A stretch of DNA of 64,000 nucleotides from Kofleriaceae bacterium (GTDB lineage Bacteria > Myxococcota_A > Polyangia > Haliangiales > Haliangiaceae). Numbering within the stretch: position 1 is the first letter of the stretch; the number at the start of each line of letters is the position of its first letter. Positions 21,068-28,376 of this stretch are shown here, piece after piece. The stretch covers positions 272,242 through 336,241 of the forward strand of contig DASTLB010000022.1 of NCBI GenBank assembly GCA_035715365.1. The letters run 5' to 3'. The notes under the pieces are model-generated. The model searched no databases, was not told the origin of the DNA, and saw only the letters and a list, made by a program, of their open reading frames with translations. Position numbers and translations under genes: made by a program.

Positions 21068-22087
21068 ATGGCCGCCGAGCTTGCGAGGGATTCCATGTTC
21101 ACCGTGCGCGAGGCCACGCCCGCCGATCGCCCCGAGATCGAGGCGCTGATCGGCGAGATGATCCCGGGCTGCGATGTCGCCGCGCGCTGGCGGTGGCTCT
21201 ACGACACGAACCCCGGCGGCAAGGCGCTCACGTGGCTCGCGATCGCACCCGGCGGCGAGGTCGCGGGCTGCACGTCGTTCTTCCCGTTCCGGCTGTGGCT
21301 CGACGGTGAGCCGCGCCGCGCCGCACTCGGCGGCGATGGCTACGTGCGACCCGCGTTCCGGCGTCGCGGCCTCGGCGGCCTCATGCACGACGCCTCGCGC
21401 AGCGCGATGCCGAGCCACGACATCGGCTGCATGTACGGCGCGCCCGGCGCGATGAACGTCACGCCGCTCAAGCACGGCGGCTCGCGCGAGCTCGGCCACG
21501 TCGCGCGCTGGGCGCGGCCGCTGCGCGGTGCCTCGCTCCGCCTGCCCGCGCCGCTCGATGCGATCGCGACGTTCGCGCTGCGTTCGCGCTCGCGGCTCCG
21601 TCTCGATCCGATGGTCCCGCACGACGAGCGCGTCGACGAGGTGTGGATCGCCGCGCGCGCCGACTTCCGGCTCGCCGCGATCCGCGACGCCGCGTTCTAC
21701 ACGTGGCGCTTCCTCGAGGCGCCGGCACAGCAGGAACCCGCGTACGTGATCCTCGACGAGGGCCGCCCGATCGGCGCGTGCTCGCTCGAGCTCATGTACG
21801 ACGGCAAGAACCTGCGCATCGTCGACGTCTTCGCGATCCCCGGCCGCTGGCACGCCTGCCTGCGCGCGATCGCCCGGTTCGCGCTCGACACGACCTCGGC
21901 GCAGTCCCTCGACATCAAGCTGTTCCAGCCCGACGGCCGGCGCCGTCACATGTGGAAGAGCCTGTTCACCGAGCGCGACTCCAAGCCATTCCTCTGCATG
22001 ATCCCCAGGGACGGCGACCGTCGCTTCATCGATCCGGACCGCTGGTTCTACTGCGGCGGCGATGCGGACGTCGATCAGCTCGACTGA
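21068..22087 (+). CDS. GNAT-family N-acetyltransferase
   Basis: An acetyl-CoA binding-like 'RRRGLGGLMHD' motif is present, and N- and C-terminal GNAT folds are predicted. An alternative start is M10 (21095). Confidence 0.6.
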   Translation: MAAELARDSMFTVREATPADRPEIEALIGEMIPGCDVAARWRWLYDTNPGGKALTWLAIAPGGEVAGCTSFFPFRLWLDGEPRRAALGGDGYVRPAFRRRGLGGLMHDASRSAMPSHDIGCMYGAPGAMNVTPLKHGGSRELGHVARWARPLRGASLRLPAPLDAIATFALRSRSRLRLDPMVPHDERVDEVWIAARADFRLAAIRDAAFYTWRFLEAPAQQEPAYVILDEGRPIGACSLELMYDGKNLRIVDVFAIPGRWHACLRAIARFALDTTSAQSLDIKLFQPDGRRRHMWKSLFTERDSKPFLCMIPRDGDRRFIDPDRWFYCGGDADVDQLD

Positions 22088-22335
22088 CCGGACGGGGTCA
22101 GGCTCCACTTGCTCAACCTGGTGGCGTGCAAGCCCGCGTGATCTTGCGTCGCAACGCGACCAGACGCGACTCGCAAGACTGCGTGCCGGACATCGAGTCG
22201 CGCAGCCAACCGGACATCCACGCGCGTGTCCGGCACGAAGCCGCGCACGCGGATCCCGTGCGCGCGTCGACGCAGTGGTCTTGCGTGCTTGCGCGTCGGT
22301 AGGTTGAGCAAGTGTAGCCTGACCCCGTCCGGTTC
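22085..22335. repeat. Long imperfect palindromic element (MITE/REP-like), copy A
   Basis: The 33-nt terminal arms are 22087-22119 'accggacggggtcaggctccacttgctcaacct' and 22301-22333 'aggttgagcaagtgtagcctgaccccgtccggt'. They are reverse complements, 32/33. The ~180-bp interior contains nested inverted repeats. The TGA of the upstream GNAT gene is the first 3 nt of the arm. Confidence 0.55.
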
Positions 22336-22434
22336 GTTTGTGTTCCAACGTTCGCGGACGTACGCGCTCCAACCACCTCGCATTTGGCCGATCAGGTCGC
22401 GTTGCTCTGCGATGACCGCGGTTATCATGGGCGG

Positions 22435-27768: not shown

Positions 27769-28245
27769 TCAGTTGAGCGACGGCGCGCAAAACTTCGGAG
27801 AGCTCGAATCGACCGGGCCGCCGGTCACCGGCTCGCCGCCGTGCTCGGCCATCAGCGTCAGATCGCGGCACTCGTAGCCATCGCGACAGTCGCTCGACGA
27901 GTCGCACGTGCGCATGCAGTAGCGAACCTCGCTGCTGCGCGGCACGCAGCGCCCGACGAGCGAGCACAGCTCGTCGAAGCTGCAGTTGTCGGTCGAGATG
28001 TTCTCGGTCAGCGGATCGCACGCGATGTTCGAGAAGTTGCCGGTGAAGAACCGCACGCACACGGCCTCTTCGGGGCACGTGTTGATGTCGCAGCCCTGGA
28101 TCGTGCAGTAGCCCTGCTTCGACGAGATGTCGCACTGGCGATCGCCGTTCGGGCTGCAGTCGGAGCTGACGATGCATTCGTCTCCGATCTCCGAGCCACA
28201 GGCACTGGCCGCGACAAGGATGGTGACGACGAACGCGAGTCTCAT
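27769..28245 (-). CDS. Cysteine-rich (about 18 Cys) secreted lipoprotein
   Basis: Signal plus lipobox 'MRLAFVVTILVAASACG'. The mature part has repeated 'C..DC...G..C' spacing ('DECIVSSDCSPNGDRQCD', 'CDSSSDCRDGYECRD'). The exact start is uncertain; the ORF is open to 28284. Confidence 0.55.
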   Translation of the reverse strand: MRLAFVVTILVAASACGSEIGDECIVSSDCSPNGDRQCDISSKQGYCTIQGCDINTCPEEAVCVRFFTGNFSNIACDPLTENISTDNCSFDELCSLVGRCVPRSSEVRYCMRTCDSSSDCRDGYECRDLTLMAEHGGEPVTGGPVDSSSPKFCAPSLN

Positions 28246-28335
28246 GAGCGCGGGCATCCTAGCGGCCGGTTGGACCCCGGACAAGCGCGCGCGGTTGCTC
28301 GGTCTGCTGCGGCGGCGTCACGAAATATCACGGAC

Positions 28336-28376
28336 TTGCAGACCACCAGGTTGAGCAAGTGTAGCCTGACCCCGTG
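28336..28376. repeat. Solo arm of the palindromic element family, copy C
   Basis: The sequence 'accaggttgagcaagtgtagcctgaccccgt' is near-identical to the right arm of copy A. It ends inside the dtd GTG start codon. Confidence 0.45.

Follow-up and report, generated by a model that had tools for sequence, protein, structure and literature searches.

This locus raises the question of what the long palindromes are that flank a gene for an M4 (thermolysin-like) metallopeptidase in a 64,000-nt stretch of DNA from a Kofleriaceae bacterium (contig DASTLB010000022.1; the whole stretch is called the window below), and why they lie against the stop and start codons of their neighbours. Two of them, A and B, stand on either side of the protease gene, and a third, C, precedes dtd (D-aminoacyl-tRNA deacylase). 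A, B and C are genuine copies of a dispersed palindromic repeat family and not chance palindromes. They are probably non-autonomous, intergenic repeats of Haliangiales-type myxobacteria, similar to repetitive extragenic palindromic (REP) sequences and to REP doublets forming hairpins (REPINs), and built from inverted pairs. The unit is an arm of 27-50 nt with an almost invariant 25-nt head (GGGGTCAGGCTCCACTTGCTCAAC), and two inverted arms form a very stable hairpin, which measures 71 nt in relatives and 230-250 nt in this genome.

Both strands of the whole window were scanned with the degenerate arm pattern CAGGNTNNACTTGCNCAA, with no more than two mismatches allowed, and six matches were obtained (22099+, 22304-, 25430+, 25558-, 25619- and 28351-) against a chance expectation of 0.09 from shuffled sequences; the sole further match was one chance match with two mismatches. 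Arms can be counted by the pattern GGGGNCAGGNTNNACTTGCNCAA or by an nhmmer profile, and the profile, made from 33 arms, recovered the identical six arms and no diverged copy in the remaining 58 kb of the window. The arm consensus from the six is GGGG[T/A]CAGG.T..ACTTGC.CAA, in about 27-50 nt. In an inverted-repeat scan of the 64 kb, the three longest inverted repeats were those within A (between its two arms; 51 nt, 86%), within B (between the left and outer right arms; 54 nt, 85%) and between A and C (22081-22165/28302-28386; 85 nt, 75%). The interior of A (145 nt) is unique and internally palindromic, B consists of one left arm and two right arms, and A and B carry different arm subtypes (Table 1). 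The sequence-only reading, in which three related copies and a duplicated right arm of B were recognised, was borne out in both points; the arms exceed expectation, and copies exist outside the window in related organisms. Its description of C as a 41-nt solo arm was correct as to the arm but not as to the size, because about 70-85 nt can be aligned to the left half of A.

Table 1. Repeat elements, arms and adjoining genes (positions in the window).
Feature	Position	Strand	Context or basis
GNAT-domain gene	21068..22087	+	PF00583; native stop TGA 22085-22087
Element A, long palindrome of 251 nt with two inverted arms	22085..22335		between GNAT stop and protease gene
A left arm; head GGGGTCAGGCTCCACTTGCTCAAC from 22094	22087..22137	+	inverted repeat, pattern, profile
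A right arm, GGGGTCAGGCTACACTTGCTCAAC	22283..22333	-	inverted repeat, pattern; two Logan contigs end/start inside
M4 (thermolysin-like) metallopeptidase gene, between A and B	22438..25416	+	annotated start ATG 22438
Element B, 235-nt palindrome, second arm subtype	25414..25648		between convergent protease and Rieske stops
B left arm, GGGGGTCAGGGTCAACTTGCGCAAC	25423..25476	+	inverted repeat, pattern; Logan contig ends inside at 25450
B inner right arm, GGGGACAGGGTCAACTTGCGCAAT	25546..25580	-	inverted repeat 91%, pattern, profile
B outer right arm, GGGGGACAGGGTCAACTTGCGCAAC	25590..25643	-	inverted repeat, pattern, profile; 2 nt from Rieske stop
Rieske [2Fe-2S] gene, convergent with protease	25645..25959	-	Pfam scan, L017 synteny
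Element C, half element with a single arm and a further stretch of about 40 nt that aligns with A left half	28302..28376	-	divergent promoter region
dtd (D-aminoacyl-tRNA deacylase)	28374..28826	+	PF02580, residues 2-145

Scanning of a metagenome collection with the arm pattern gave 27 loci, about 19 of which are contigs of 68-74% G+C with the shared head GGGGTCAGGCTCCACTTGCTCAAC, 17 coming from the single, unrelated metagenome Ga0164243. With the nhmmer profile more than 50 arms were found on about 19 high-G+C metagenome contigs, a count that covers metagenome contigs and lies outside the source genome (a 620-kb contig of a Third Party Annotation (TPA) metagenome-assembled genome (MAG)). At least 20 metagenome copies match the 25-nt head of the left arm of A at 100% identity, and the proteins of a contig syntenic with the window are just 60-81% identical to those of the window despite this invariant head; the interiors of A and B had no match elsewhere. 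Two Logan contigs from the source sample itself reproduce window 18013-22322 and 22303-25450 exactly; three of their four ends lie inside arms, so that further occurrences of arm k-mers in that sample are implied. Further copies and conserved arms in relatives thus exist, which chance local palindromes would have lacked. A collection of species-representative genomes, from which the source genome and its close relatives are absent, gave three chance matches in low-G+C MAGs, and no arm was found in a viral contig collection scanned with the pattern.

The metagenome copies are arranged as perfect hairpins of 71-73 nt (seven loci, -55 to -78 kcal/mol), as head-to-tail arrays (L016, L031 and L019, the last with a period of about 45-47 nt), as solo arms or as mosaics, an organisation also known for bacterial interspersed mosaic elements (BIMEs) and REP clusters. 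They lie on at least 17 contigs and in every orientation, next to unrelated genes with housekeeping functions. Clustered regularly interspaced short palindromic repeats (CRISPR) were ruled out for the tandem arrays, in which no unique spacers were found. Three of the clusters have details of their own: L016 (8575-8875) holds two plus-strand and three minus-strand arms; L019 (12100-12300) is a tandem array of variant arms GGGGTCAGACCCCACTTGCCCAAC whose head is itself palindromic (GGGGTC-A-GACCCC); and L022 (2103-2935) is an 830-nt mosaic that also contains a tandem repeat of GCGCTAGCGA (about 2390-2430).

The manner of spreading was considered from the identical copies at L015 108-178 and L021 5425-5495. 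These 71-nt hairpins share a mismatch and an asymmetric loop and lie in unrelated flanks; their identity begins at TAGC on one side and stops at CCCC on the other, with no direct repeat, and no target duplication was found in the flanks of A and B. Identical copies at different loci without target-site duplication argue against a miniature inverted-repeat transposable element (MITE) of the DDE type and for movement of the HUH type. Of the proposal that the palindromes are mobile miniature elements, we therefore retain a probable non-autonomous mobility and reject strict likeness to MITEs. Classical MITEs would be deletion derivatives of insertion sequences (IS) with a DDE transposase, for example Tn3-like ones, moving by cut-and-paste or replicatively with target duplication; the present elements resemble them in their terminal inverted repeats (27-50 nt), their overall length (70-250 nt) and their variable interior. 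The inverted repeat of Tn3 starts with GGGGTC, and the first six bases of the arm are the same. Such an origin is nevertheless quite improbable, since direct repeats are missing at the identical copies (L015a/L021) and at A and B, many copies stand as head-to-tail arrays or solo arms, none of the loci examined yielded an IS with these ends, and the internal TAAG box of the Tn3 type is absent. The Correia elements of Neisseria and the ERIC and YPAL elements of enterobacteria are likewise fully palindromic sequences of 70-250 nt that are co-transcribed with their neighbours, with a proposed effect on mRNA stability, but they duplicate a TA target and derive from DDE-type IS, whereas the present family shows no duplication.

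A link to Y1 transposases is suggested by the outer sequence of the arms. REP-associated tyrosine transposase (RAYT)-like genes termed TIRYT, which with their terminal inverted repeats (TIRs) form TIRtrons, are surrounded by TIR repeats with a common outer GGGGWSAS that also occur as dimers and clusters, according to Di Nocera 2013 (PMC3733652); in Quentin 2018 (PMC6006769), TIRYT enzymes are placed in Y1 subclass 2.1 with the flank consensus GGGG[AT][CG]A[CG]. This consensus fits all six arms of the window (GGGGTCAG or GGGGACAG) and all metagenome arms, so that the head motif is common to the family and to TIRYT flanks. Four TIRYT loci each have GGGGACA[CG] repeats at both gene ends, before the start codon on one side and at the stop codon, or overlapping it, on the other, and the TIRYT gene of Citrifermentans bemidjiense has complete hairpins on both sides (GGGGACAGGCTACTTTTT...AAAAAGTAGCCTGTCCCC), which start with GGGGACAGGCTAC and are identical in 12 of 13 bases to GGGGTCAGGCTAC in the right arm of A and in C. 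One end of each of the seven metagenome hairpins is TAG. This TAG does not serve as the gene's stop in L021 or on the right side of L015b, so that it is part of the element or of its target and comparable to the GTAG tag of REPs. At least nine of about 30 outer heads have TA(G) before the G-run, and about 14 heads have CGTCC there. We infer mobilisation by a Y1 transposase: the likeliest agent of a spread without target duplication would be a Y1 HUH transposase from subclass 2.1, the RAYT-like TIRYT class, whose single-copy gene would lie elsewhere in the genome and which would recognise the GGGGWSAS head on single-stranded hairpin DNA.

The contacts with stop codons were examined over 50 heads, a stop being sought within 30 nt on the 5' side of the head and an open reading frame (ORF) being taken as coding-like with at least 80 codons and a G+C content at third codon positions (GC3) above 0.8. 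Such a stop was found for 19 of the 50 heads, in 18 of these at -1 to +9 nt from the head, and five elements share their first G with the TAG. In the window, the GNAT stop lies 6 nt from the G-run of A, and the protease stop (TGA, 25414-25416) 7 nt from that of B; the Rieske stop (25645-25647, minus strand) is 2 nt past the last arm of B, adjacent to it rather than inside. Since the last residues of the GNAT and Rieske proteins are orthologous between the window and the syntenic relative, the elements abut native stops and have not rebuilt the C-termini, contrary to the suggestion that an element supplies stops here, as B was thought to do for the Rieske gene. At L009 (10-1300) a stop is indeed provided by the element: the upstream ORF lacks its own, enters the hairpin for about 17 codons and terminates there at the TGA of GTTGAGC. 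Contact with a start codon, also claimed for the termini, holds only for C, where the dtd GTG at 28374 directly follows the last C of the arm in a frame (MRAVVQRV) consistent with Dtd; the right end of A stops 102 nt short of the protease ATG. According to PMC3733652, a REP between convergent genes is found no more than 20 bp from either 3' end, a unidirectional REP is near the 3' end of the upstream gene only, and the GTAG termini of REPs often provide a TAG stop. A (unidirectional) and B (convergent) obey this placement rule exactly. Contiguity with stop codons and the bracketing of a gene are ordinary for the REP class, with stop contact already documented. Copies would persist only directly 3' of stops, either because insertion targets flanks of the T(A/G)(G/A) type or because other sites are not tolerated.

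Three start codons follow the CCCC end of an arm at 0-7 nt (dtd in the window, L015 179-190 and L017 581), too close for a separate ribosome-binding site to fit in between; in metagenome arms, one could be provided by the GGAG of ..GTGGAGCCTGACCCC, 9 nt before the arm end, and arm C of the window has GTAG in its place. At three TIRYT genes (L035 2179-2200, L041 919-975 and L042 2164-2185), the gene's TAA stop and the inverted repeat downstream overlap (TAAGTAT..TGTCCCC; L041 has the repeat twice in tandem), a similar contiguity with a stop codon at the transposase gene itself.

The predicted hairpins of A and B were checked by folding and are far more stable than expected (A, -169.8 kcal/mol, z -12.6; B, -144.2 kcal/mol, z -9.0), as the sequence-only reading had anticipated. 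Single arms fold no better than shuffled sequences (z +0.4 to +1.5), and the unit thus differs from a classical REP stem-loop. In transcripts that include an element, the mRNA 3' end would carry a long hairpin rich in G+C, which may stabilise, process or attenuate the transcript. No match was obtained in Rfam at gathering thresholds in the window, and one chance miRNA match was obtained at E<=1 in 21900-28500; the idea of small RNA loci is not supported by this search. A scan for sigma-70 promoters found none at the elements, and a sigma-54 promoter was ruled out on inspection, the GG-to-GC spacing being 2 nt too short.

Several results weigh against the proposed Y1-driven, REP-like origin or the RNA-level role attached to it. 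Neither a Y1, RAYT or TIRYT protein nor a DDE transposase or integrase was present among 39 Pfam-scanned proteins of the window, and no RAYT or TIRYT was found among all ORFs of the window and of about 200 kb of arm-bearing contigs in searches by phmmer with E. coli RayT and by a hidden Markov model of 16 published RAYT/TIRYT sequences. A search of a protein database with the TIRYT alignment gave at least 8000 matches, and no Myxococcota label was seen among the 120 matches listed. The copies in the window have the flank CGGAC instead of TAG; outside Citrifermentans, the likeness to TIRYT flanks is limited to GGGGWCAS...ACTT; the arms have 27-50 nt, against 16-20 nt for the TIRs at TIRYT genes; and the larger arm count covers metagenome contigs only. 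At the RNA level, covariation in the hairpins was not significant: 30 of the 35 stem pairs never vary, with counts not above those of shuffles, and selection for RNA structure is accordingly not demonstrated. No U-tract terminator was found at A, B or C by scanning, the hairpins ending in CCCC, and the terminating structures that had been considered are not canonical terminators.

The last two results bear also on the alternative that the elements are host-maintained sites that are no longer mobile, either RNA hairpins at 3' ends (U-less terminators, stabilisers or RNase III sites) or sites for a DNA-binding protein; REPs and BIMEs have been proposed as binding sites for gyrase and integration host factor. 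The head would then be conserved by host selection instead of by a transposase. Its invariance across organisms whose proteins are 60-81% identical, the strict placement within 10 nt of stops, and the presence of an element at the matching GNAT/Rieske junction of two lineages would all suit such a role. Solo arms and tandem arrays, however, are unable to form the hairpin, covariation gives no support, U-tracts are missing, and the identical 71-nt copies at unrelated loci point to recent copying. As a full account, host maintenance is rather unlikely; it is compatible with the REP-like origin and does not exclude it.

Whether the elements have affected the protease gene was considered by comparison with the syntenic contig (L017, Ga0164243_10003243), of which 1-2651 corresponds to window 21059-27768 with amino acid identities of 60% (GNAT), 69% (Rieske), 81% (OppC) and 80% (OppB). 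In this contig the GNAT stop (TAG) is directly followed by one 71-nt hairpin, the Rieske stop comes 8 nt further on, and the protease is absent; the protease segment is therefore variable between lineages. The GNAT/Rieske junction holds members of the family in both lineages, the L017 hairpin being the standard unit of its own genome, and the simplest reading is that the 3' ends of these genes were occupied independently in each. Possibly the protease was gained by recombination at an element or was lost between A and B; the elements would offer homology for such rearrangements, which fits a protease between two elements where the relative has one. The insulation of the protease noted previously reflects the general habit of the family at 3' ends, although the relative does lack the protease segment at its syntenic locus.

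Among 34 genes of the window, the protease gene has the lowest codon-usage distance and hence the most typical usage, without sign of recent foreign origin, and a foreign origin was ruled out on this ground. It is 100% identical to HEU0030776.1 (992 amino acids; P0001), encoded on a 620-kb contig of a Kofleriaceae TPA MAG, and its homologues P0002 (42% identity) and P0003 stand in other contexts, with no arms at the P0002 locus.

Under a bolder view, the elements would be portable recombination borders, and a gene between two of them would be inserted or removed exactly between the stops of convergent genes, by a Y1 transposase in trans or by element-to-element recombination; the 3-kb M4 protease would then resemble a TIRtron in which a passenger has replaced the transposase. 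The only hint of this is the order GNAT, single hairpin, Rieske in L017, and we regard it as doubtful; if true, myxobacteria would have a mechanism by which cargo genes behave as cassettes. The protease could also be a cassette moved by a site-specific recombinase, with the elements as integron attC-like sites marking its borders. The GCTCAAC/GTTGAGC of the arm fits the attC core RYYYAAC/GTTRRRY, the protease lies between two elements and the syntenic relative has one element and no protease; attC sites and Vibrio cholerae repeats, too, are imperfect palindromes directly after stops, with one gene between two repeats. This is nonetheless very unlikely, since the window contains no integrase and no array, the core-like heptamer lies 17 nt inside the arm and not at its terminus, the copies are scattered over at least 17 contigs, in every orientation, among unrelated housekeeping genes, A and B belong to different arm subtypes, and the codon usage of the protease is the most typical of the window.

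Membership of the MITE, attC, terminator and Rfam classes each fails on a tested feature. By analogy, the elements would work like REP/REPIN/BIME repeats, with the TIRYT-associated TIR repeats as the closest match. With the REP/BIME/REPIN-RAYT systems of E. coli, Pseudomonas and Stenotrophomonas the family shares an intergenic location, inverted doublets that form hairpins, mosaics, the lack of target duplication, a preference for convergent and unidirectional gene gaps within 20 nt of 3' ends, and, in some copies, a TAG that doubles as a stop. It differs in that the stem has 33-35 bp or more, against 6-13 bp in REPs, that the GTAG tag is found just in a subset, the others having CGTCC or CGGAC, and that the single unit is not a stem-loop whereas the REP unit is an imperfect palindrome; classical REP membership fails on this one defining feature. 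The TIR repeats of TIRtrons, as described in PMC3733652 and PMC6006769, agree with the family in the outer GGGGWSAS, in units that are not self-complementary, in occurring as dimers, clusters and solo copies in moderately abundant families, and in the lack of target duplication, to which the 12 of 13 head bases shared with the Citrifermentans flanks may be added. The family has longer arms, an invariant 25-nt head and, in the window, interiors of 145 nt; its cognate transposase was not found in the window or in the arm-bearing contigs, and Myxococcota are not among the species treated in the parts of the two papers that were searched. Membership of the TIRtron repeat class is thus supported by the head motif, with the enzyme lacking.

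A literature search found no description of REP- or REPIN-like repeats in Myxococcota, nor of the arm sequence of the window. The family would extend the GGGGWSAS TIRYT repeat class to a new phylum in a long-stem form, and, one core occurring with both TAG-type and CGTCC-type flanks, the relation between GTAG-REPs, CGTC-REPs and TIRYT repeats can be examined within one family. The family may serve as a clean marker for Kofleriaceae-type genomes and may explain breaks at gene ends in their short-read assemblies; annotators should expect hairpins of up to 250 nt that touch stop and start codons, and gene gain or loss may occur there.

Between the Rieske gene and dtd lie OppC-like and OppB-like permease genes and then a gene for a secreted hypothetical protein. 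The permease genes (25961-27768) overlap by about 60 nt, the longest OppC ORF (532 amino acids) reaches far upstream with its frame shadowing OppB, no substrate-binding or ATPase gene of a transporter is adjacent, and the Rieske gene follows OppC with a 1-nt gap. Exact-sequence look-ups of Dtd, Rieske and OppB gave no matching record. Beyond dtd, tandem paralogues of the metallo-beta-lactamase fold (28837-29814 and 29766-30662) overlap slightly; they have 37% amino acid identity (E 1e-52) and contain the largest direct repeat of the window, a 279-nt stretch of 73% nucleotide identity. Elsewhere in the window, an RNA-ligase-domain gene (PF09414) lies near queC (10402-11400 and 12934-13641), and from 41 kb there is a cluster for polysaccharide export and biosynthesis, with Bac_transf, UDP-glucose dehydrogenase, an epimerase, a Wzz/GNVR tyrosine-kinase-type protein, Poly_export, Wzy_C and a flippase.

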